Positions 27,243-37,425 are shown, counted from the first letter of the stretch. The stretch is DNA of 64,000 bases from Candidatus Binatia bacterium (GCA_963664535.1 OY761465.1:1573602-1637601); one strand, 5' to 3'. Numbers and translations: made by a program. Notes: generated by a model not told the origin, from the sequence alone.

Positions 27243-28112
27243 TCACGTCCGGTACTTCTCGTCCAGGGCGTACTTCTCCTCGAGCCCCACGATGTCGTGG
27301 AAGTCGTCGAACGGCAGCAGCCGGTCCATGAGGGCCTCCGCGGTGCCGGCCTCCCGGAGGTTGGTGTAGTAGCTCTTGAGCGCCTGGGCCGCTGAATAGA
27401 GCGGACCCACGGGCCAGACGATGAGGGCGAAGCCCAGCTCCCCGAGCTCCGCCGGCGTCATCAGCGGCGTGACCCCACGTTCGATCATGTTGGCCACCAG
27501 CGGACCCGGCACGTTGCGGGCGATCTCCCGCATCTCCTCGCGGCTTTCCGGAGCTTCGATGAACACGGCGTCGGCGCCGTTCTCCTTGAAGGCGATGCCG
27601 CGCCGGATGGCCTCGTCGAGGCCCAGGGCTTGGCGCGCGTCGGTGCGGGCCACGATGAAGAGGTCCCCGTCAGCCTTGGTCGCCACCGCCGCATTGAGCT
27701 TCTTGAGGTACTCTTCCAGCGGCACCACCTGCTTGCCCCTCATGTGCCCGCAGCGCTTGGGCCACACCTGGTCCTCCAGGAACATGCCCGCCGCCCCGGC
27801 CCGCATCAGCTCGTTGACGGTACGGACCACGTTCACCGCGTTGCCGTAGCCGGTGTCCGAGTCCACGATGACCGGCGTCGGCACCGCGCCGCAGATGCGG
27901 TAGATGGTGCTCAGCATCTCGGTCTGCGTGAGGATGCCGAAGTCCGGCTCGCCCAGCATGGTCGCCGAGATGCCGTAGCCGGTGGTGAAGATGACGTCGA
28001 AGCCGGCGCGTTGGGCGATGCGCGCGCTCAGGGCATCGTACACCCCGGGCATGACCAGGGTTCCGTTCCGGTCGAGGGCTTCCTTGACTCTGCTCATTTG
28101 GACCTCCAGCAT
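27243..28112 (-). CDS. isocitrate lyase/PEP mutase family protein (PrpB/carboxyvinyl-carboxyphosphonate phosphorylmutase-like)
   Basis: The ICL/PEPM barrel signatures are VMPGVYDALSARIAQRAGFDVIFTTGYG and KRCGHMRGK. An alternative start is at 28097. Confidence 0.75.
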   Translation of the reverse strand: MLEVQMSRVKEALDRNGTLVMPGVYDALSARIAQRAGFDVIFTTGYGISATMLGEPDFGILTQTEMLSTIYRICGAVPTPVIVDSDTGYGNAVNVVRTVNELMRAGAAGMFLEDQVWPKRCGHMRGKQVVPLEEYLKKLNAAVATKADGDLFIVARTDARQALGLDEAIRRGIAFKENGADAVFIEAPESREEMREIARNVPGPLVANMIERGVTPLMTPAELGELGFALIVWPVGPLYSAAQALKSYYTNLREAGTAEALMDRLLPFDDFHDIVGLEEKYALDEKYRT

Positions 28113-28548
28113 GTTTGGTTTGAAGAGAGTGACCCGAACACCAAGCAGGACGCGAAGGAAGTCATCGTCTTTCAGAGTATCCTTCTGAACTGCACGGGAG
28201 TCGAGTCTATCTCATATAGTGACGCAAGACGATGCGCGACCGCACCATTGTAAAACAGGGCTCAACCCATCGCCGTGTGGAGAACTGCGCCATTGGTTCC
28301 AGATAACCGTCAATAAAATCGGTCGGAAACCCTCTGTTCGGATCACGACTACGTAACGCAGGCTCAATTCAAAGAATCTGCTGTCTCTGGGACATGAGGC
28401 AGGAACCTTGAACCGGGTGACCTCAATCAAGTATCTTGACATCCTAGGGACCGTAGGGCGGCGGTACGGAAGACAGGTACCCTTTGGAAAAGCAGAACAG
28501 GCGTGAAAGCCCTAGCCGGGCAACCTCGGTAAGAACAGGGAGAAGAGC

Positions 28549-31245
28549 TTGAGCACGGAAGATCCGTTGGTGACAGCGTTGAGCCTCTCGTCCGGAGCAG
28601 AATTTCAGAAATGCGCGCTCCAGATCAACCCTCGGCACTATTCAGGTACGTATCGCGGCCAGCAGGCAACGCTCGGCGATGACGAATACGTCAGCGCACT
28701 AATAGACAAGGCAATGGACCTCGGAATCACAGTACTGGCGGTAACGGATCACAATCACGTAGGAGGCGTGGATGCGATCAGAATCGCGGCGCAAGAGCAG
28801 AAAATTCACGTGTTTCCTGGTTTCGAGTTGTCATCGACCGAAGGTATCCACGTCCTTTGCCTTTATTCACCAGAAACCACAGAGGAACAACTAGGTCGTT
28901 TTCTCGGCGAGTTCGGCATTCGTGCCACTACGACGTCAAGTGACTTGTGCGACAAGTCTTTCTCCGAACTCCTCGCATGCGTGCATGATCAGGGAGGCAT
29001 TTCCATCGCGGCGCATGTCACACATGACAATGGGTTGCTGCGGACCCTCCAGGGACAGCCTCGGGTCCGTGCCTGGAAGGACGAAAACCTCTACGCCATC
29101 CAAATCCCCGGACCGGTCAACGACCTTCCGGACGACATACGGCCGATCGTTCAAAATAGGAATGGCGACTATTTCCGGGAATACGCACCCGAGCCCGACC
29201 TTGCCATAGCGACAGTTAACGCAAAGGATGTCGCGGCGCCAGACGACCTCGCTGACCCATCGGCTACTTGCTGGATCAAAATGTCCGAGGTCAGCATGGA
29301 AGGCCTGCGCCAAGCATTTCTCGATCCCGGGTCGCGAGTCCGGCTGAACAGCGATCCGGTGCCTGAGGAGCACTCTGAGCTTGTCGCCATGGGATGGCAA
29401 GGGGGCTTCCTGGACGGCACAATGTTCCACTTCAATCCAAATCTGAACGTCTTGGTGGGAGGTCGTGGTGCAGGCAAGTCAACGGTAATCGAAAGCTTGC
29501 GTTATGTACTCGGACTAGAACCGTTAGGTGAAGAGGCCCAATCGGGCCATGCAGGTATTCTCCGTAACGTCCTCCGTAATGGTACCAAGGTGTCTCTCCT
29601 GGTTCGTTGCCATCGCCCAGGGCCGCGAGACTACCGCATCGAACGCACCGTCCCTAATCCGCCGGTCGTACGCGATACTCAGACAGGCGAGGTGCTAAGC
29701 GTAGCGGCGACCAACATTTTTCCCGGTGTAGAGGTCTATGGGCAGCACGAGATTTCGGAACTCACAAAGAGTCCGGAAAAGCTGACCCGGTTGCTTGAGC
29801 GGTTTGTGGAGCGAGACGATTCCGTAGGCAACCAGAAGCGCGAACTGCACCGCGAACTGGAACGCTTGCGTAGTCGGATTCTCGCGGCTCGTAAGGAGCT
29901 CAGCCAGATAGGGGAAAGACTGGACGCTCTGCCAGGACTTGAGGGGACGCTACGGCGCTATCAGGAAGCGGGGTTGGAACAGGACCTGAAAGAACAAAGT
30001 CTTCTGGTACGGGAGGAGGGTGTCCTCGAAACCATACCCGAGCGCCTACAACCGTTGCGGTCCTGCTTGGATGGGTTGCAGCAGGAGTTACCGATTGACC
30101 GGACTTTCCTCTCCCCAAAAGCTCTGGAAGATCTGCCTGGGAAAGCGATCTTGGCTGGTGCCAATCAAGTGTTAGCGAAACTGAACGCCGATCTGGAGAA
30201 AGTGTTACCCGACTTCACTCGGGCACTCGACAAGGCCGAACAGGGTCTCCAAGGTGTCCATCGACAGTTCGGCGAGCGTAGGACCGCGGTGCAAGCAGCG
30301 TACGAGAAGAAGCTTCGGGAACTCCAGAAAGCCAGGATCGACGGTGAGGAGTTCATACGGCTCCGACGTCGGATAGAAGAGTTACGACCCCTCAAAGAAC
30401 GGCAAACGACTCTAGCTCGGATGGAGACGGACCAACAAGAACGACGCCGGAATCTGTTGGCTGAATGGGAGGACATTAAGGCAGCAGAGTTCCGGGCGCT
30501 GGAACGCGCCGGCAAACGTGTCACGCGGAAACTCGAAGGCCGTGTTCGTGTACGTGTCGAGTTTGGCGGAAACCGCGAGGCATTGTTCCAACTCCTCCGT
30601 GATGAGATAGGCGGACGACTGTCCGAGACGATCGACATTCTGCGACAGTCCGACAACTTGTCTCTCAGCGCTTTTGTAAAGGCTTGTCGCCAAGGTCCGG
30701 ACATTCTTCTCACGGAATTCGAAATCTCGGGTGTTCAAGCAGATCGTTTGGCTCAGGCCCCCGACGAGATTCTCATGCAGGTTGAAGAGCTTGACCTCCC
30801 GTCCATCACAAAGATCGAGCTGAACACGGCACCTCCTGACGAAAGGGAAAACTGGCAAGCGCTCGATCAGCTCTCCACTGGCCAAAAGGCAACTGCTGTA
30901 CTGTTGCTCTTGCTACTTGAGTCCGATGCACCACTCGTCGTGGATCAACCGGAGGATGATCTCGACAACCGCTTCATCACAGAAGGAGTTGTCCCGCGTA
31001 TGCGCGACGAGAAACAGCGTCGCCAGTTTCTTTTCTCGACTCATAACGCAAACATTCCAGTCCTCGGAGATGCCGAACTCATCCTAGGTCTCAGCGCATC
31101 GGGAGAAGCGGAAGAAGGGAACGCGAAGATTGCACCGGAACACATGGGTTCTATCGATGCTCAAGCTGTGAGAGAGCTTGTGGAAGAGTTGCTCGAAGGT
31201 GGCGAGGACGCGTTCAAGCGCCGGCGGCGCAAGTACGGATTCTAG
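28549..31245 (+). CDS. PHP-family phosphoesterase domain fused to an SMC/Rad50/RecN-like ABC ATPase with a long coiled coil (Ppl-like architecture)
   Basis: The N-terminus carries PHP motifs (AVTDHNHVGG, AAHVTHDNG). The ATPase part has Walker A GGRGAGKST, a ~300-aa Leu/Glu/Arg-rich coiled coil, signature LSTGQK, Walker B/D-loop VVDQPEDDLD and an H-loop FSTHN. It has a TTG start with a GGGAG RBS. GC is lower than the flanks. Confidence 0.7.
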   Translation: MSTEDPLVTALSLSSGAEFQKCALQINPRHYSGTYRGQQATLGDDEYVSALIDKAMDLGITVLAVTDHNHVGGVDAIRIAAQEQKIHVFPGFELSSTEGIHVLCLYSPETTEEQLGRFLGEFGIRATTTSSDLCDKSFSELLACVHDQGGISIAAHVTHDNGLLRTLQGQPRVRAWKDENLYAIQIPGPVNDLPDDIRPIVQNRNGDYFREYAPEPDLAIATVNAKDVAAPDDLADPSATCWIKMSEVSMEGLRQAFLDPGSRVRLNSDPVPEEHSELVAMGWQGGFLDGTMFHFNPNLNVLVGGRGAGKSTVIESLRYVLGLEPLGEEAQSGHAGILRNVLRNGTKVSLLVRCHRPGPRDYRIERTVPNPPVVRDTQTGEVLSVAATNIFPGVEVYGQHEISELTKSPEKLTRLLERFVERDDSVGNQKRELHRELERLRSRILAARKELSQIGERLDALPGLEGTLRRYQEAGLEQDLKEQSLLVREEGVLETIPERLQPLRSCLDGLQQELPIDRTFLSPKALEDLPGKAILAGANQVLAKLNADLEKVLPDFTRALDKAEQGLQGVHRQFGERRTAVQAAYEKKLRELQKARIDGEEFIRLRRRIEELRPLKERQTTLARMETDQQERRRNLLAEWEDIKAAEFRALERAGKRVTRKLEGRVRVRVEFGGNREALFQLLRDEIGGRLSETIDILRQSDNLSLSAFVKACRQGPDILLTEFEISGVQADRLAQAPDEILMQVEELDLPSITKIELNTAPPDERENWQALDQLSTGQKATAVLLLLLLESDAPLVVDQPEDDLDNRFITEGVVPRMRDEKQRRQFLFSTHNANIPVLGDAELILGLSASGEAEEGNAKIAPEHMGSIDAQAVRELVEELLEGGEDAFKRRRRKYGF

Positions 31246-31254
31246 GGCAACAAA

Positions 31255-32631
31255 GTGACGAAGACAGAGCTTCTGGAGCTGATTGCAAACGGCGAGAACT
31301 CGGGCGTGGACTTTAAGCGCGATGTAATTGACAACCGCGCGCTCGCGAAGGTCCTCGTGGCATTCGCCAACCTGCGGGGTGGACGCCTCCTCCTCGGGGT
31401 GGACGACGATGGAACCGTCCGCGGCCTTACGCGGCAAGATCCACGGTTGGAAACAGAAGAGGATGAGACTGGTCCGCACACGTACCAAGCCCTTGAGGAG
31501 TGGGTGATGCAGGCGTGTCGCGACAAGATCCGCCCCGAGATCATCCCCTACTTCGAAACCTTCCGAGAAGTCGCGCCTGGACGTGACGTGGCTGTCGTAC
31601 AAGTCGGTCGCGGGTGGGGTGTACACCACGTGTGGCACAATCAGCATCGCACCTACTACATCCGCGTCGGGACGTTGAGCCGTGAGGCTAGCCCGGAAGA
31701 ACTGGCGCGGATGTTTCAACAGCGAGGTGCCTTTCGCTTGGAACTACAACCGGTGTCAGGCACTTCGATCGACGACTTGGACCCTCGACGCCTTACTCAA
31801 TATTTTGCGGAGATACGAGAACAGCAAGTCCCGGCATCGAATCCACCTGAGGAGTGGCGTATCGAAACAACGGCATGGGCACGGAACGAGGACCAGAAAC
31901 ATTGGCGGGAACTTGTCGATCAGAGGGAACGAGATTGGTACCGTGAACAGGCAGCCGCATGGAAATCATTGCTCGTCAACACCGAGTTTCTCGCCGAAGA
32001 TGATCCGCAACCTGGGACCGTGGCCGGACTTATGTTGTTTGGTAGCAACCCCAGTCGATTCCTACCCCAAGCGAAGATTGACGCCGCCGCCTACTTCGGT
32101 TCGGTGAAAGACTATGCCGCAAAGGAACGGCGCACGCTGCGGGGACCGCTCGTCAGTTTGAAAGGTGTCGACGGTTCCGTGCTGGAGCCTGGCCTCGTGG
32201 AACAGGCAGTGGAGTTTGTCAGACGGAACATCCAGACGGTGCATCTGGAAGGGGGGATACGCCGCCAAGAACGGTGGGACTACCCGGTCGAGGTCGTTCG
32301 TGAGGTGATCGTCAACGCGGTCGTTCACCGCGATTATCTGCTGTCGAGTTCGGACATCGAACTCAGTGTCTATTCCGACCGGCTTGAGGTCATCTCACCC
32401 GGGCGCTTGGCGAACGGCATCACCACAGAGCGAATGCGAGTCGGATGCAGAAGCGCCCGCAACGAGCTGCTGAAAGACGCCATGCGAGACTACGGTTACC
32501 TCGAGCACATGGGTATGGGCGTACCACGAAAGATCATTCGGGGTATGCAGGAGCAGAACCGCACCGATCCCGACTTTATCGAGGACGACGAACGGTTCAC
32601 TGTACGATTGTGGAAGGATCCGCGGGCCTAG
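31255..32631 (+). CDS. COG2865-type protein: Schlafen-like AlbA_2 (divergent-AAA) N-domain plus a C-terminal HATPase_c_4/RecG-C-like domain
   Basis: The N-terminal motif is ENSGVDFKRDVIDNRALAKVLVAFANLRGGRLLLGVDDDGTV. The C-terminal motif is REVIVNAVVHRDYLLSSSDIELSVYSDRLEVISPGRL. It starts 9 nt after the PHP-ATPase gene. Confidence 0.65.
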   Translation: MTKTELLELIANGENSGVDFKRDVIDNRALAKVLVAFANLRGGRLLLGVDDDGTVRGLTRQDPRLETEEDETGPHTYQALEEWVMQACRDKIRPEIIPYFETFREVAPGRDVAVVQVGRGWGVHHVWHNQHRTYYIRVGTLSREASPEELARMFQQRGAFRLELQPVSGTSIDDLDPRRLTQYFAEIREQQVPASNPPEEWRIETTAWARNEDQKHWRELVDQRERDWYREQAAAWKSLLVNTEFLAEDDPQPGTVAGLMLFGSNPSRFLPQAKIDAAAYFGSVKDYAAKERRTLRGPLVSLKGVDGSVLEPGLVEQAVEFVRRNIQTVHLEGGIRRQERWDYPVEVVREVIVNAVVHRDYLLSSSDIELSVYSDRLEVISPGRLANGITTERMRVGCRSARNELLKDAMRDYGYLEHMGMGVPRKIIRGMQEQNRTDPDFIEDDERFTVRLWKDPRA

Positions 32632-32873
32632 GCGTTCCGAGGATGGTCACAGGCACGGCTGGACTTGAGAAGATCCAATACCGCCAATATTCAAACAACA
32701 GATTTGGAGCGGTTCTGAATCGAGACACAGGCCACGAATCTTCGACAACTCGCTACTGCGTGTCCTTCACCGTTGAAGCCAGGCGAGTTCCAAGTGAACA
32801 ATCGGGCTGAAGCCCCTGACACGACGACGAGCATCCCACGCTGGCCATACGATACGCGTGACCAGTTAATCCG

Positions 32874-33158
32874 CTACTCCGCGGGAATCTCCACGATCAC
32901 GTCGCCGAGCACCTTGGCGACGCAGCCCAGACGCTCGGCGGCATCCGCGCTGAGCATGGACAGCGTCAGCTCCTCATTGTCGTCCATGGGGCTCAGGTTG
33001 TTGTCTCCGGCGAGGATCTTCACCCGGTCCGTGCCGCAGATGGCCTCGGTGCAGTCGTGGCGAAGGGTGACGCCGTTCCGTATGGCCGCCACCAGGATGG
33101 TGGTGCCGTCGTCGACCTCGAAGCTCTGTCCCAGTGGCATGAAAGTGACTCTAGGCAT
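32874..33158 (-). CDS. small hypothetical protein, ferredoxin/beta-grasp-like fold with an incomplete Cys set
   Basis: The N-terminus (RVTFMPLGQSFEVDDGTTIL, HDCTEAIC) is 2Fe-2S-ferredoxin-like, but only three Cys are present. Confidence 0.35.
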   Translation of the reverse strand: MPRVTFMPLGQSFEVDDGTTILVAAIRNGVTLRHDCTEAICGTDRVKILAGDNNLSPMDDNEELTLSMLSADAAERLGCVAKVLGDVIVEIPAE

Positions 33159-33246
33159 GGCGGGTTTGTAGGAGACGCTTGCCGGGTTGTCAAGAAGTTG
33201 CGTCCGATGGGTCGGCGCCCCATCGGCGTCTCAGGGTTTTCGTACA

Positions 33247-33269
33247 GGGGCGGGCTTGAAACCCGCCCC
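33247..33269 (-). terminator. GC-rich hairpin GGGGCGGGcttgaaaCCCGCCCC abutting the stop codon of the MBL-fold gene
   Basis: An 8-bp perfect stem immediately follows the minus-strand gene ending at 33269. There is no clear U-tract. Confidence 0.3.
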
Positions 33270-33991
33270 TACAAATCCACCACCAGGCCGTCCTCCGCCG
33301 TCTCCACCGGCAACGACCGGCGCCGGGCCAGCATCTCTTCTCCCATGTGCGTCAGGATCAGCCGCTTGCACTCCAGCCGCTCACGGCGCGCGGCGATCTC
33401 CACGTAGCTCATGTGCGAGGGAGACGGCGCGTCGTAGTGGCAGCACTCGCAGATGAACAGGTCGGCGCCCCGGCTGTGGGCGATGAACTGGTCCGTCCAG
33501 CTCGAATCCCCGGAGAAGAGCACGGTGCGGCCCGCCACCGTCACCCGCAGGCCCAGCGACACGGCGTCGGTCTGGTGCGGCACCCGGAAGCCCAGCACCT
33601 CGGCGCCGGCCACGGCGGTGACGGTGCCGGGTTGCAACTCGGTGAAGAGGGCGAAAGGCAGATCCTTCTCGCCGTACATCACCTTCATGAGATCGCGGAC
33701 GCGGGTCTCGGTGCCGGGCGGCCCGGCCACCGCGAGGGGGCGGGTCCGAGGCTTGTCGTAGAGGTAGTGGATGAAAAAGAACGGCAGTCCGCCGAAGTGG
33801 TCGCCGTGCAGATGGCTCAGGGTGACGGCGTCGACATCGGCGGGGTCCAGGCCCGCGCGCCTGAGGGCGGGGAGCGTGGAGGGGCCGCAGTCCAGCAGGA
33901 AGAGGCGCGGGCCGTCCTCCAGCAGATAGGCGGTCTGGTTTCTGCCGCCGCTGCCGAAGGCGTCCCCGCATCCGAGGAAATGGACTTTCAC
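33269..33991 (-). CDS. MBL-fold metallo-hydrolase
   Basis: The beta-lactamase-fold metal-binding motif is HLHGDHFGG. It is 240 aa. Confidence 0.75.
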   Translation of the reverse strand: MKVHFLGCGDAFGSGGRNQTAYLLEDGPRLFLLDCGPSTLPALRRAGLDPADVDAVTLSHLHGDHFGGLPFFFIHYLYDKPRTRPLAVAGPPGTETRVRDLMKVMYGEKDLPFALFTELQPGTVTAVAGAEVLGFRVPHQTDAVSLGLRVTVAGRTVLFSGDSSWTDQFIAHSRGADLFICECCHYDAPSPSHMSYVEIAARRERLECKRLILTHMGEEMLARRRSLPVETAEDGLVVDL

Positions 33992-34137
33992 GATGCCGAG
34001 ACTAACAGCGCCGGATCGACCTTGGCAACGCGTGCCGGGTCTGCCACATTCCCCTGAGTATCCCGGTCTTGTTTCGGGGCCGCGTCCGCGGCGCGGCGAA
34101 GCCCGATCGCACTAACTTCGCACATGAAGTCGACTTC

Positions 34138-37100
34138 ATGAAGATCATTCTCGGCCCCTGGCACCCCCACCTGGAACACGCCCTGGCGGACGAAATCCGC
34201 GACCGGCGCGCGCGCGACCGGCTCGCCCCGCTGCTGTTGGCGGTGCCGTCAGAAACGCTACGCCGTCGCATCAAGGTGCTACTGGCGCAAGAGCGCAACC
34301 TCCAACTCCTGAACTTCGATGCGATCACCTTCTCCCAACTCAGCCTGAAGCTCTACCACGAGACCCACGGTCCCGTGGAACCGACGTTGCGCAGCGGAAC
34401 CTTCATGGAGGAGGCCCTGAAACGCGTGCTTCCGGCCCGGGGCCGCTTCGCGGGCATCGCGGACAACGATGGCTCGTGCGCGGCGCTGTGGCAGACCCTG
34501 CGGGACCTCAAGGACGCCGGGGTGGATCCGGATGCGGCCCTGGACGCGCTGCGGGAAGGGCATTTCGGAAACCGCGACCGCGACTCCTTGCAGGCGCTCC
34601 TGGAGTTGCACCGCGAGGTGCAGCGCCGCTTTCCCGAATGGGACGCGCGGGACCGGCAGGACCTCGACGCTCGGGTCGTGCCGCGGGCGCCGTTCTCGCG
34701 CTGGCTCGGGCAGTTCGAGCGCATCTATTACTACGGCTTCTATGACCTGACCCAGACCCAGTTGGACTTGTTGCGGAGCGTCGCCGGCGCTTGGCCGGTC
34801 ACCCTGTTCTACCCGCTTGTACGGGGGGACCCGGACTGGTCCTTCGCCGAAAGATTCTTCGACCGATACCTGATGGGACTGGCGGGGGCGGACGAAGTCG
34901 TGGATCTGCTCGGCGACGCGGCGGCAGACGGCGCCGTTGCGGGCGGCGCTGAAGCCGTCGCTTCGGACGACCCTGAACACGACCCGCCGGACGGCGGCGA
35001 ACGAGCGGCGCGCCGGGCGGACAGTCACCCGACCCGGGACAGCCGGCGCGGGCGGGCGCCCCGCCGCGAGGCGCTCAGTTGCGCCGGCCCGCGCGCCGAA
35101 GTGCTCACCGCGGCCAAGCTCATCCTCGGACTTGTGGAAGAAGAGGGCTTCGAATGGCGCCGGGTGGGCGTAGCCTCGCGCACCCTGGACGGCTATCTTC
35201 CGTGGATCCGGGAGATCTTCCCCGCCCACGGCATCCCTTTCGACACGCCGGCGCGAGAGTCGCTGGCCCGGTCCCAAAGGGTGCGCGCCCTGCTGGCGCT
35301 GCTGGAGCTGCCGGCACGCGACTACCCGCGCGCCGGGGTCATCGATCTGCTCGCGTCCCACCGCTTCAACTTCAGGGCCGTGCTCGGACCCCACGCAGAC
35401 GCCCGGCCGGATCTGTGGGACGTGGCCACGCGTCTCCTGGGCATCGGGCGCGGCATGGGCGAATGGCGCCGGTTGGAGCGCTTCCTCGACACCGGGCTGG
35501 CATACCGGCGCGAACATGACGAGGATACGGACCGGCCCCGGCGCATCGAGGCGGAGGACATCCGCGCGCTACTGAAAACCGTGGAGGCGTTGCACGCGGA
35601 ACTGAGCGCGCTGCCGCCGGAAGGCGCTTGGTCGGAACTCGCGGGGCGCTGCCGAGCGCTCATGGACCGCTTCCTTGCGCCCATCCGGGATGAACGAGAG
35701 CGTGGCGTGATCGGCGCCATCGACGGCGTCCTGGACGAGTTGGCCGCCCTGGACCGCGTTGCCGACCGCGTGGCGGTCCCGGCATTCGCGGCGGCCTTGC
35801 GCAAGGGCCTGGAGCGGGGCTCGGTGCCGATCGTGGGGCAAGCCGCGGCCGGCGTCGCCGTGCTGGACGCCGCCGCCGCCCGCGGCATCCCCTTCGATGC
35901 CCTGTTTCTGCTGGGCATGAACGAAGGGACGTTTCCCCGCGCCATTCGCGAAGACCCCTTTCTTCCCGACCGAGCCCGGAACGTGTTCGAAACCGTGCTG
36001 GGCTACAAGGTGGCCTCGAAGCTGGCGGGATACGACGAAGAGAGGCTCCTGTTCGCGCTGCTCGCCGGCGCGGCGGCCGAGCGGCTCTATTGCACCTGGC
36101 CGCGCGAGGACGCGAGGGAGCGCGCGCTGGCGCCGTCGTGGTACCTGCGCGGGCTGGGCGCGGACGCAGGCCGCCCGGATGTCCTCACGCGGGTGCTGCC
36201 GAAAAACCTTCCAGGCAAACACCCGCCACCGCCCTTCGACAAGGACCGCTGGCTCTTGCCCGAAGAGCTGGCGGTACGCCGGGCGCTCTCGGGAAAGGAC
36301 CCGCGCCCGCCCATGCGCATCGCCGGCGTTTCCATGGACAGCTTCGAACGAAGCCTGCGCGCGGTCCGCGCGCTGGAAGACGGCAGCGGCGCGCCGGGAC
36401 CGTTCGACGGCGACACCGGCCCGCTGGACGAAGTCTGGGCTGACGTGATCGAGCGCGGCGTCTCGCCCTCGATGCTGGAGGCCTACGGGCGCTGCCCGTT
36501 CCAGTACTTCGCCGGCCGTGTGCTCCGCCTGGAACGGCTGGAGCGTCCGGAAGGCAAGACGCCGGTCGGGGCGCTGGAGCACGGAGCGCTCTGCCACGAA
36601 ATCCTGGAACAATTCTACAAGGACACGGAGCAGGCCTTCGGGCCGGACTGGCGCGAGCGGCTGGACCGCGTTGCCGTCCGGGTCCTGTCCGACTTCTCGG
36701 AACGCAACCCCACGGGCTACCCAGCGGCGTGGGAAGTGGCGAGGGAAGAGCTCGTGGACATGCTGCGGCGCGAGGTCGAGGCGGATCGGCGGCAAATGAT
36801 GAAACTGGGCTTCCGCCCCGTGGCGCTCGAAGTGGAACAAAGCGTTGACCTTGCCGCGGCGCTCGATGCGGACTGGCCGAAAGAACTCCGGGACATCCGG
36901 CTTCAGGGACGGCTGGACCGCGTGGACTACAGCGACGCGGACGGCCGTTACCGGATCGTGGACTACAAGTACAAGAGCGGCCGAAAGCCCCAGACCGTGG
37001 ACCAGGACCCCGCGCGCTCCGCGGTCCGCGGGCAAAGGCTGCAACTGCCCATCTACGTGCTGCTGGCGGCCGGCGGCCGCGACAACCGGCTCAACGTGCC

Positions 37101-37425
37101 TGCCGCGACCCAAGTGGACGCGTCCTGGCACTTTCTCGCCCCCCATTGGGAAGAGGGCCCCCTGTCCACCCGTGAGTTCAAGGGGCAGTCGTGGCAGGAA
37201 CCCGAAGGCGAACAGATTCGTGACACGATGACACACCTTCTGATGGGCATTCGGGCGGGGGCGTTTCCCATGGTGCCCGGCGACTATTGCGGCTATTGCC
37301 AAGTGTCGGAGATCTGCCGAAAGAAGCACTTCCCGTCGGTCACGCGCGCGCGGCGGCACCCGGCGGCGGAAGCGTTGACGCGGATGCGAAAGGCCAAGCC
37401 CCTGAAGAAGAAGGATCGGCCATGA
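34138..37425 (+). CDS. addB: double-strand break repair helicase/nuclease AddB-like (PD-(D/E)XK nuclease with C-terminal Cys cluster)
   Basis: It is 1095 aa. The C-terminal CGYCQVSEIC motif is typical of the AddB Fe-S/nuclease region. Its stop overlaps the addA start (ATGA). Confidence 0.65.
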   Translation: MKIILGPWHPHLEHALADEIRDRRARDRLAPLLLAVPSETLRRRIKVLLAQERNLQLLNFDAITFSQLSLKLYHETHGPVEPTLRSGTFMEEALKRVLPARGRFAGIADNDGSCAALWQTLRDLKDAGVDPDAALDALREGHFGNRDRDSLQALLELHREVQRRFPEWDARDRQDLDARVVPRAPFSRWLGQFERIYYYGFYDLTQTQLDLLRSVAGAWPVTLFYPLVRGDPDWSFAERFFDRYLMGLAGADEVVDLLGDAAADGAVAGGAEAVASDDPEHDPPDGGERAARRADSHPTRDSRRGRAPRREALSCAGPRAEVLTAAKLILGLVEEEGFEWRRVGVASRTLDGYLPWIREIFPAHGIPFDTPARESLARSQRVRALLALLELPARDYPRAGVIDLLASHRFNFRAVLGPHADARPDLWDVATRLLGIGRGMGEWRRLERFLDTGLAYRREHDEDTDRPRRIEAEDIRALLKTVEALHAELSALPPEGAWSELAGRCRALMDRFLAPIRDERERGVIGAIDGVLDELAALDRVADRVAVPAFAAALRKGLERGSVPIVGQAAAGVAVLDAAAARGIPFDALFLLGMNEGTFPRAIREDPFLPDRARNVFETVLGYKVASKLAGYDEERLLFALLAGAAAERLYCTWPREDARERALAPSWYLRGLGADAGRPDVLTRVLPKNLPGKHPPPPFDKDRWLLPEELAVRRALSGKDPRPPMRIAGVSMDSFERSLRAVRALEDGSGAPGPFDGDTGPLDEVWADVIERGVSPSMLEAYGRCPFQYFAGRVLRLERLERPEGKTPVGALEHGALCHEILEQFYKDTEQAFGPDWRERLDRVAVRVLSDFSERNPTGYPAAWEVAREELVDMLRREVEADRRQMMKLGFRPVALEVEQSVDLAAALDADWPKELRDIRLQGRLDRVDYSDADGRYRIVDYKYKSGRKPQTVDQDPARSAVRGQRLQLPIYVLLAAGGRDNRLNVPAATQVDASWHFLAPHWEEGPLSTREFKGQSWQEPEGEQIRDTMTHLLMGIRAGAFPMVPGDYCGYCQVSEICRKKHFPSVTRARRHPAAEALTRMRKAKPLKKKDRP

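Follow-up and report, generated by a model that had tools for sequence, protein, structure and literature searches.

What do two closely spaced genes of foreign composition, lodged among metabolic and repair genes, encode, and do their products act together? The question is raised by positions 28113-32873 of a 64,000-nucleotide (nt) stretch of DNA from a Candidatus Binatia bacterium (GCA_963664535.1 OY761465.1:1573602-1637601), referred to below as the window, where two co-oriented open reading frames (ORFs) of 898 and 458 amino acids (gene 1 and gene 2) make up an islet of about 4.8 kb with low GC content (Table 1). The genes correspond to trlF and trlG of the Photorhabdus 'temperature restriction locus' (TRL), and the islet is read here as a horizontally acquired orphan copy of a TrlF-TrlG module serving in defence, a reading to which, taken as a whole, we give a probability of about 0.6. 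That the module serves as a cassette for defence against phages or mobile elements is in itself quite probable, and the most likely division of labor is one in which TrlG is a growth-arresting tRNase effector and TrlF its DNA-sensing partner.

The composition of the islet set it apart from its surroundings. Its GC content was 0.564, against 0.650 in the remaining window, and fell below that of all 249 other segments of 4.76 kb (minimum 0.585, mean 0.652, standard deviation 0.024). GC content at third codon positions (GC3) was 0.60 in gene 1 and 0.66 in gene 2, compared with 0.84-0.93 in neighboring genes (phosphoenolpyruvate mutase, MBL-fold protein, AddB-like nuclease, SDR and YkuD). This composition is a strong signal of recent horizontal acquisition of the islet as a unit, as the initial annotation had suggested. 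The best match of gene 1 was in a Candidatus Binatia metagenome-assembled genome (98% protein identity), whose near-identical locus (L001) was also the only one to match both intergenic flanks; that the flanks are remnants of Hma or BREX genes was ruled out, since their sequence similarity was to this locus only. Neither convincing direct or inverted repeats nor an integrase marked the borders of the islet, no mobile-element genes lay near this chromosomal copy, and no tRNA or other Rfam RNA was found within 27500-33500. The upstream region held no sigma-70 consensus promoter, with a promoter scan not above shuffled expectation, and terminator signals downstream were not in excess over shuffled sequence. 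The window copy, an orphan amid metabolic and repair genes, shows that TrlF-TrlG can move as a self-contained unit.

Along its entire length, gene 1 matched the NCBIfam model NF045780 ('TrlF family AAA-like ATPase'), residues 16-897 aligning with model positions 2-944 of 944, at 512.3 bits against an equivalog cutoff of 350, and at least 3777 homologues were found at E<=1e-10. Pfam placed AAA_21 at residues 764-836, together with SMC_N, AAA_23 and AAA_29. The ATPase motifs comprised the Walker A GGRGAGKST (304-312), the Q-loop YGQHE (397-401), the signature LSTGQK (775-780), the Walker B/D-loop DQPEDDLD (799-806) and the H-loop THN (831-833). Conservation was counted over 81 family sequences (and, for TrlG below, over 71): Walker A, the Q-loop, the Walker B/D-loop and T831-H832 were invariant (81/81), N833 was present in 79/81, and the signature residues were present in 69-81/81. 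The C-terminal tail RRRRKYGF was nearly invariant (>=90%) in a 41-sequence alignment. Between the ATPase halves, residues 394-663 matched the coiled-coil regions of SMC, Rad50 and RecN in NCBIfam, where gene 1 scored far below the cutoffs of the Rad50 and SMC models; no CxxC zinc hook was found in residues 401-760.

The N-terminal part of gene 1 gave only a sub-threshold Pfam PHP match (22.5 bits; cutoff 26.4), and sequence searches of the pair against solved structures returned marginal matches only (Smc head, RNase AM, 3lmm). Structure prediction confirmed the PHP fold that had been proposed for this region: an AlphaFold2 model of residues 1-290 had a mean predicted local distance difference test score (pLDDT) of 86.5, and Foldseek matched it, with probability 1.0, to the PHP domain of RNase AM (E 2.6e-7), to EndoQ (TM 0.56) and to the PHP domains of PolC and Pol III alpha. 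The TDHNH sequence singled out by the initial annotation is present at residues 66-70; its TDH is PHP motif II and not the HxH of motif I, whose place is taken by Q25-x-N27, with N224...D227 as motif V. The residues of this pocket (Q25, N27, H68, E93, H101, H156, N224 and D227) were each conserved in 77-81/81 sequences, and are therefore under selection. As judged from these residues, the pocket may bind fewer metals or have another role, and it could be a sensor of nucleotides or nucleic-acid ends rather than a nuclease. Gene 1 is a TrlF-family protein in which a PHP fold with a conserved, non-canonical metal site is joined to an SMC/Rad50-like ABC ATPase with intact motifs. A distant solo gene of the family (27% identity), common among conjugative plasmids of enterobacteria and found on an Escherichia coli IncI-gamma/K1 plasmid (L084:3890-6511) and on about 110 other Escherichia plasmids, retains the canonical PHP motif I (DFHLH), unlike the clade of the window gene. 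Among phages, a distant full-length relative (23% identity) occurred in two Listeria phage records only.

Gene 1 had been likened to Ppl, a validated single-gene anti-phage system that also combines a PHP domain with an ABC ATPase (Gao et al., 2020) and has been described as a single-stranded DNA (ssDNA) 3'-5' exonuclease inhibited by nucleoside triphosphates (PMC12904381). According to that review of 2026, Ppl is activated by nucleotide depletion and 3'-OH ends, which it senses (PMC12904381). The resemblance held, Ppl being the best PADLOC match (PDLC02208, E 1.1e-41, 141 bits, in two stretches, the best at residues 772-892) and the second-best NCBIfam match (NF042955). Membership did not: the score of 210 bits is below the curated equivalog cutoff of 1000, and gene 1 was rejected as a Ppl. 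Furthermore, Ppl acts alone, whereas gene 1 has a dedicated, conserved Schlafen-GHKL partner, and its motif I is QxN instead of HxH.

That partner, gene 2, carries a SLFN_AlbA_2 domain at residues 14-145 and a HATPase_c_4 domain at residues 366-452 (75 bits) in Pfam. Motif definitions were taken from bioRxiv 10.64898/2026.05.29.728809 and PMC13462974. The predicted catalytic triad of the Schlafen domain is E14-x4-D19-x-K21, followed by the Schlafen box VAFAN at residues 35-39, and E14, (E/D)19, K21, N39 and G42 were conserved in 71/71 TrlGs. The GHKL motifs consist of the N-box E350-x3-N354...H358-R-D-Y, S-P-G-R-L-x-N at 381-387 and G420-x-G422; E350, N354, H358, R359, D360, Y361, P382, G383, G420 and G422 were likewise conserved in 71/71. 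In the structure model (pLDDT 70), the top Foldseek match was 3lmm, an uncharacterized full-length homologue (E 5e-13); the N-terminal domain matched human SLFN11, SLFN13, SLFN12, SLFN14 and SLFN5 and the SAMD9 tRNase, and the C-terminal half matched the GHKL folds of PDK and histidine kinases. Gene 2 was 36% identical to the BREX-embedded TrlG of a Vibrio parahaemolyticus plasmid. It belongs to TrlG, a subfamily of its own among the Schlafen-GHKL proteins known as 'Schlatpases', and its predicted triad and N-box are intact. The subtype of 458 amino acids, shared by the window, L001-L003, L005, L006 and others, contains a Trp-rich helical insertion that is absent from the 410-amino-acid subtype (window 31837-31965, residues ~195-237, pLDDT ~90), and a second, disordered insertion at residues 61-77. 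For both genes, Pfam, NCBIfam and Foldseek agreed with the domain calls of the initial annotation, and the tight coupling across 9 nt and all of the gene 1 motifs that it listed were found as described.

Table 1. Coordinates of the genes, domains and intergenic regions of the islet, in window positions.
Feature	Coordinates	Strand	Details
Upstream intergenic region	28113..28548		GC 0.525; Shine-Dalgarno-like GGGAG at 28538-28542, followed by the TTG start of gene 1
Gene 1, TrlF-family PHP and ABC ATPase with long coiled-coil insert	28549..31245	+	898 amino acids, TTG start; NCBIfam NF045780
PHP-fold phosphoesterase domain, residues ~16-270	28594..29358	+	AlphaFold2 and Foldseek
ABC ATPase, N-terminal half, residues ~285-400	29401..29748	+	Walker A and Q-loop; Pfam SMC_N, AAA_23, AAA_29
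Coiled-coil-like insert, ~360 amino acids, residues ~401-760, between the ATPase halves	29749..30828	+	NCBIfam
ABC ATPase, C-terminal half, residues ~761-898	30829..31245	+	Signature, Walker B/D-loop, H-loop, tail RRRRKYGF
Spacer from gene 1 stop to gene 2 start	31246..31254	+	9 nt, TAG-ggcaacaaa-GTG
Gene 2, TrlG-type 'Schlatpase'	31255..32631	+	458 amino acids, GTG start; Pfam, Foldseek
Schlafen nuclease domain, residues 1-150	31255..31704	+	Triad, VAFAN box, GGRLLLGV core
GHKL (Bergerat-fold) ATPase core, residues ~341-458	32275..32631	+	Pfam HATPase_c_4
Downstream intergenic region, right edge of the islet	32632..32873		GC 0.545

A scan for homologous loci, with one genome per species, yielded 80 loci whose TrlF was 55-98% identical to gene 1; judged by their record titles, they represent about 20 phylum-level lineages. 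A conserved COG2865 neighbor had been set beforehand as the test of the pairing, and a TrlG-type gene lay directly downstream of TrlF, in fixed order, in 74 of the 80. Spacers were 2-19 nt long in 65 of 73 measured loci and 40-44 nt in the remaining eight, and the two genes are inherited as a pair; genes 1 and 2 are operonic and probably coupled in translation. Among the exceptions, TrlG was about 1 kb upstream in L072 and reduced to a 153-amino-acid Schlafen remnant in L080, a larger and diverged Schlafen-GHKL-HTH protein occupied the operon in L041 and L049, and no partner was within reach in L044 and L064. The TrlGs adjacent to TrlF formed a single clade (pairwise identity median 0.52, minimum 0.41), outside of which fell the other Schlafen-ATPases of the same loci, only 22-30% identical to TrlG. 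Distances among TrlFs and among TrlGs were correlated (Mantel r 0.40; 0/2000 permutations as high), and close TrlGs (E<=1e-30), which occurred on four of 72,556 plasmids, stood beside TrlF in 4/4.

Several loci departed from this arrangement in detail. A second TrlG-type paralogue, 47-58% identical to the TrlG of its own locus and nested in the TrlG clade, was present at L025:12447-13715, L034:12728-13972, L071:12129-13364 and L031:4691-5929, and two distinct TrlG effectors may share a single TrlF. TrlG was split into two ORFs at L009:5202-6438 and L069:4975-6215, and the remnant of L080 (10671-11132) kept the Schlafen domain only; such cases suggest that the putative toxic effector decays now and then beside an intact TrlF. 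The ORF holding the TrlF homologue of L005 (4194-10694) is open for 6.5 kb from far upstream, which may reflect either a fusion to the preceding gene or simply a missing in-frame stop.

The genomic context of the pair was that of defence systems and not of repair operons, in accordance with the expectation of the initial annotation. Hma, BREX or DUF1156-methylase/PLD-helicase genes were found within 8 kb in at least 27 of the 80 loci. The pair was embedded on the same strand within Hma systems, as HmaA-[TrlF TrlG]-HmaB in L013 and HmaB-[pair]-HmaC in L022; it lay between a DUF1156 methylase and a PLD-helicase in L002, one of the loci most closely related to the window pair other than itself, and the gene order on the V. 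parahaemolyticus plasmid was pglX-TrlF-TrlG-pglZ. Solo TrlF genes were situated between PglX and PglZ or BrxHI (L041, L044, L049), and the solo TrlF of L064 was flanked by a type III restriction enzyme and PDC-S68. Hma, BREX and related restriction-like systems have repeatedly received the pair between their genes. Most cassettes found inside Hma serve defence, with seven of nine tested being active (Payne et al., bioRxiv 10.1101/2024.01.29.577857), and proteins that combine a Schlafen domain with a histidine kinase have been described as frequent 'backup suicidal effectors' of BREX (2026 BREX survey).

Other embedded genes were also seen at these loci. Just upstream of pglX, the solo-TrlF BREX loci L041 (3135-5024) and L049 (3111-5003) encode a 629-amino-acid protein with SLFN_AlbA_2, HATPase_c_4, MarR-like HTH and Fic-like_C domains; it is 22-27% identical to TrlG and could act either as an accessory of BREX or as another partner of TrlF. 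HmaC, the DUF499 ATPase beside the pair in L022 (12020-15367), has an N-terminal Swt1-like HEPN domain, in agreement with the HEPN-DUF499 'backup effector' fusion of the 2026 BREX survey. Small ORFs directly upstream of TrlF at L025:7604-7990 and L028:7546-8004 were fragments of HEC-01A and HEC-01B, and a HEC-01A-like ATPase followed HmaB at L013:15014-16162. It appears that various cassettes make use of the same embedding sites in Hma.

The pairing had been thought to be undescribed, but it proved to be the trlF-trlG core of a locus that has already been named, trlR-trlF-trlG of Photorhabdus laumondii (Hapeshi et al., 2020; PMC7554251), and this islet is another instance of TRL. In that study TrlF was called a 'histidinol phosphatase' and TrlG, with its AlbA_2 and HATPase_c_4 domains, was noted to be mis-annotated as RecG. 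Temperature-tolerant mutants carried 16 distinct lesions, all in trlG, among them S16N, V35I, A36V, two stop codons and two insertions of insertion sequences, and none in the approximately 2.2-fold larger trlF. Deletion of the whole operon was viable, transcription rose on temperature up-shift and virulence was altered. The locus was patchily distributed, in 21 of 46 Photorhabdus and 12 of 1218 V. cholerae genomes, the nearest homologue beyond Photorhabdus was assigned to V. parahaemolyticus, and phage defence was not considered as its role (PMC7554251). The window pair shares with TRL the two-gene core and its order, both domains of TrlG and the patchy horizontal spread. It differs in its TrlG, of the 458-amino-acid subtype with two insertions, in its very distant host lineage, and in lacking trlR, which encodes a 79-amino-acid HTH protein: there was no TrlR-like ORF in the 436-bp region 28113-28548, and across the 80 loci no conserved cluster of small upstream ORFs was found, the seven small upstream ORFs, two of which were HEC-01A/B fragments, being without an HTH domain. 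What is new here is the reach of TrlF-TrlG into about 20 phyla, far beyond the original proteobacterial description, the recurrent embedding in Hma and BREX, the conservation of the Schlafen triad and GHKL site, and the non-canonical PHP site.

The mutant spectrum bears on the roles of the two proteins. If TrlF were needed for toxicity and mutability per residue were equal, the chance of 16/16 lesions falling in trlG would be (410/1290)^16, or about 1e-8, which suggests that TrlF is dispensable for the toxicity of TrlG or that its loss is lethal when TrlG is present. By numbering, S16N, V35I and A36V belong to the catalytic loop and Schlafen box of TrlG. Mapping of all the Photorhabdus mutations via a Vibrio proxy was given up, as the numbering agreed for S16, V35 and A36 only, and no further position was retained. 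TrlG is most likely the effector because its Schlafen active site is invariant and the Photorhabdus lesions lie only in trlG; the proposal that the Schlafen protein acts as a second sensor or regulator probably had the roles reversed, given the invariant tRNase triad and its being the sole site of loss-of-toxicity lesions.

Prokaryotic relatives of TrlG offer a model for such an effector. In SLFN-pAgo, the study of which introduced the term 'Schlatpase' for the supradomain and counted 60,692 Schlatpase proteins, the ATP-bound GHKL domain drives an activating tetramerization, leading to tRNA cleavage and abortive infection (bioRxiv 10.64898/2026.05.29.728809), and Cash cleaves the T-loops of tRNAs with the triad E17/D22/K24 (PMC13462974). 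Gene 2 has the same triad, Schlafen box and GHKL domain (PF13749) as these and other prokaryotic Schlafens (pSlfn; bioRxiv 10.1101/2025.07.24.666596) and fits the Schlatpase or pSlfn-HisKinase class by its motifs, and from these relatives it is predicted to cleave tRNA. In SLFN-pAgo, Cash and pSlfn the sensor is fused to the effector (Argonaute, Csx15 or Ig-like), whereas in the window pair a PHP-ABC ATPase, a protein apart from the effector, is the candidate sensor.

By analogy to Ppl, TrlF would act as a sensor or guard, controlled by nucleotides, for which ssDNA or the 3' ends of DNA are the object of monitoring or attack, and it might both restrain or license TrlG and degrade DNA itself. 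Upon a trigger, or upon failure of TrlF (e.g., at high temperature in Photorhabdus), TrlG would oligomerize through ATP binding by its GHKL domain, in the manner of SLFN-pAgo, and cleave tRNA, resulting in growth arrest and abortive infection; what restricts Photorhabdus at high temperature would in that case be autoimmunity caused by TrlF-TrlG. Such a specific wiring from the TrlF sensor to the TrlG effector, drawn by analogy, has somewhat less than even odds in our estimate. Human SLFN11 responds to aberrant DNA with tRNA cleavage and growth arrest. The stronger proposition, of a two-protein immune system in which a Ppl-like sensor of DNA ends or ssDNA directly licenses a Schlafen tRNase as a bacterial counterpart of SLFN11 logic, with temperature restriction in Photorhabdus as autoimmunity, is put forward tentatively.

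A similar logic is known from PARIS, where the ABC ATPase AriA controls AriB, a Toprim tRNA nuclease (2026 BREX survey), and both modules are often embedded in BREX and Hma. TrlF-TrlG is not a member of the PARIS family: the AriA match to gene 1 was weak (31 bits over residues 764-836), no Toprim protein lay beside gene 1, the effector is a Schlafen instead of a Toprim protein, and TrlF adds a coiled-coil insert and a PHP domain. If TrlF and TrlG are indeed coupled, they would represent a further ABC-ATPase and tRNA-nuclease immune design beside PARIS and a convenient two-protein system for studying the activation of Schlafen tRNases, and the published host-range and temperature phenotype would be explained as autoimmunity of a defence system. 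In the module, a relative of Ppl, itself a validated exonuclease that senses DNA ends, would be joined to a member of Slfn-GHKL, the largest and a functionally unproven class of prokaryotic Schlafens.

Several points weigh against the defence reading or against a coupling of the two proteins. The literature searched contains no experiment showing phage protection by TrlF-TrlG and no test for defence; of seven pSlfn genes examined elsewhere, two were protective, neither of the Slfn-HisKinase class (Taboada et al., 2025). The mapping of residues to Photorhabdus TrlG is by numbering only, and the canonical HxH and DxH ligands are missing from the PHP site of gene 1, so that it may not be an active nuclease. 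The window pair lies outside any defence island, and its surroundings are metabolic and repair genes. Partners have been reassorted, with identities of 76% for TrlF and 48% for TrlG in L004 and of 58 and 72%, respectively, in L057, which argues against a tightly co-evolved interface. Finally, solo genes of the TrlF family are found on many plasmids (Xanthomonas, S. aureus, E. coli), and Schlatpases without TrlF are abundant, so each protein may be autonomous.

The last points are at the heart of the alternative that survives best, in which two autonomous defence genes, a Ppl-like exonuclease/ATPase and a Schlafen-GHKL tRNase, travel together and give layered immunity without direct coupling. 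The reassortment and the solo copies, which also occur in BREX and restriction-modification loci, would be expected under it, as would the function of Ppl as a single gene, the commonness of Schlatpases on their own, and a Photorhabdus phenotype that requires TrlG and apparently not TrlF. However, order is fixed in 74 of the 80 loci across the lineages sampled, mostly with the short spacers of 2-19 nt, and random co-embedding would vary order and partners; the TrlF-linked TrlGs also form a specific subfamily, those on plasmids are always beside TrlF, and the co-variation of the two proteins is significant. Fully independent action is considered unlikely.

A role outside defence, either as a stress or temperature regulator of growth or in SbcCD/Rad50-like repair with PHP in the place of SbcD, appears improbable. 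It would accommodate the sole published phenotype (temperature-restricted growth, altered virulence and temperature-induced transcription), the SMC/Rad50-like topology of the ATPase, and the automatic RefSeq Gene Ontology term 'double-strand break repair'. TrlF indeed resembles Rad50/SbcC-Mre11/SbcD and Lamassu/Wadjet in having an ABC head split by a coiled coil together with a phosphoesterase or nuclease; those systems serve as models of DNA-end or DNA-structure sensing. Nevertheless, Mre11/SbcD is a separate, calcineurin-fold protein, whereas the PHP domain of TrlF is fused and TrlF lacks the zinc hook; no kleisin or other SMC accessory subunit accompanies TrlF, and its LmuB and SMC matches are confined to the P-loop region. 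The Rad50/SbcC repair reading was rejected on the missing zinc hook, the lack of an Mre11/SbcD gene nearby and the defence context. The patchy horizontal distribution, the foreign composition in the window, the embedding in Hma and BREX, the carriage on conjugative plasmids and the lack of any link to repair operons likewise argue against a non-defence role, and abortive-infection effectors typically show self-toxicity when the temperature is non-permissive.

A toxin-antitoxin-like addiction cassette, with TrlG as toxin and TrlF as antitoxin stabilizing carrier elements or defence operons without phage sensing, has very little probability, since the relief of toxicity by TrlG loss, the failure to recover trlF mutants, the viable whole-operon deletion, the plasmid carriage, the embedding in mobile defence systems and the decay of TrlG in L009, L069 and L080 are set against an antitoxin of 898 amino acids and two enzymes with conserved ATPase and PHP residues, far more elaborate than addiction calls for, solo TrlF copies that persist without the toxin, and a chromosomal window copy away from mobile-element genes. 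A defence cassette with TrlG as effector and TrlF as sensing partner is the preferred reading. This instance is ordinary; on the evidence of sequences and gene neighborhoods, the family would rank as a well-supported and widespread defence candidate.

The genes around the islet encode a PEP mutase, a ferredoxin, an MBL-fold protein, an AddB-like nuclease, YkuD, LigB and an SDR. The MBL-fold gene beside the islet (window 33269-33991, minus strand) resembled the anti-Pycsar nuclease Apyc1 only weakly, at a score below threshold (26 bits; cutoff 50), which probably reflects general MBL similarity. Downstream of the islet, in native high-GC DNA, an AddB-like protein of 1118 amino acids (34069-37425, plus strand) carries a C-terminal PD-(D/E)XK nuclease domain, and is presumably a housekeeping recombination or repair gene outside the module.

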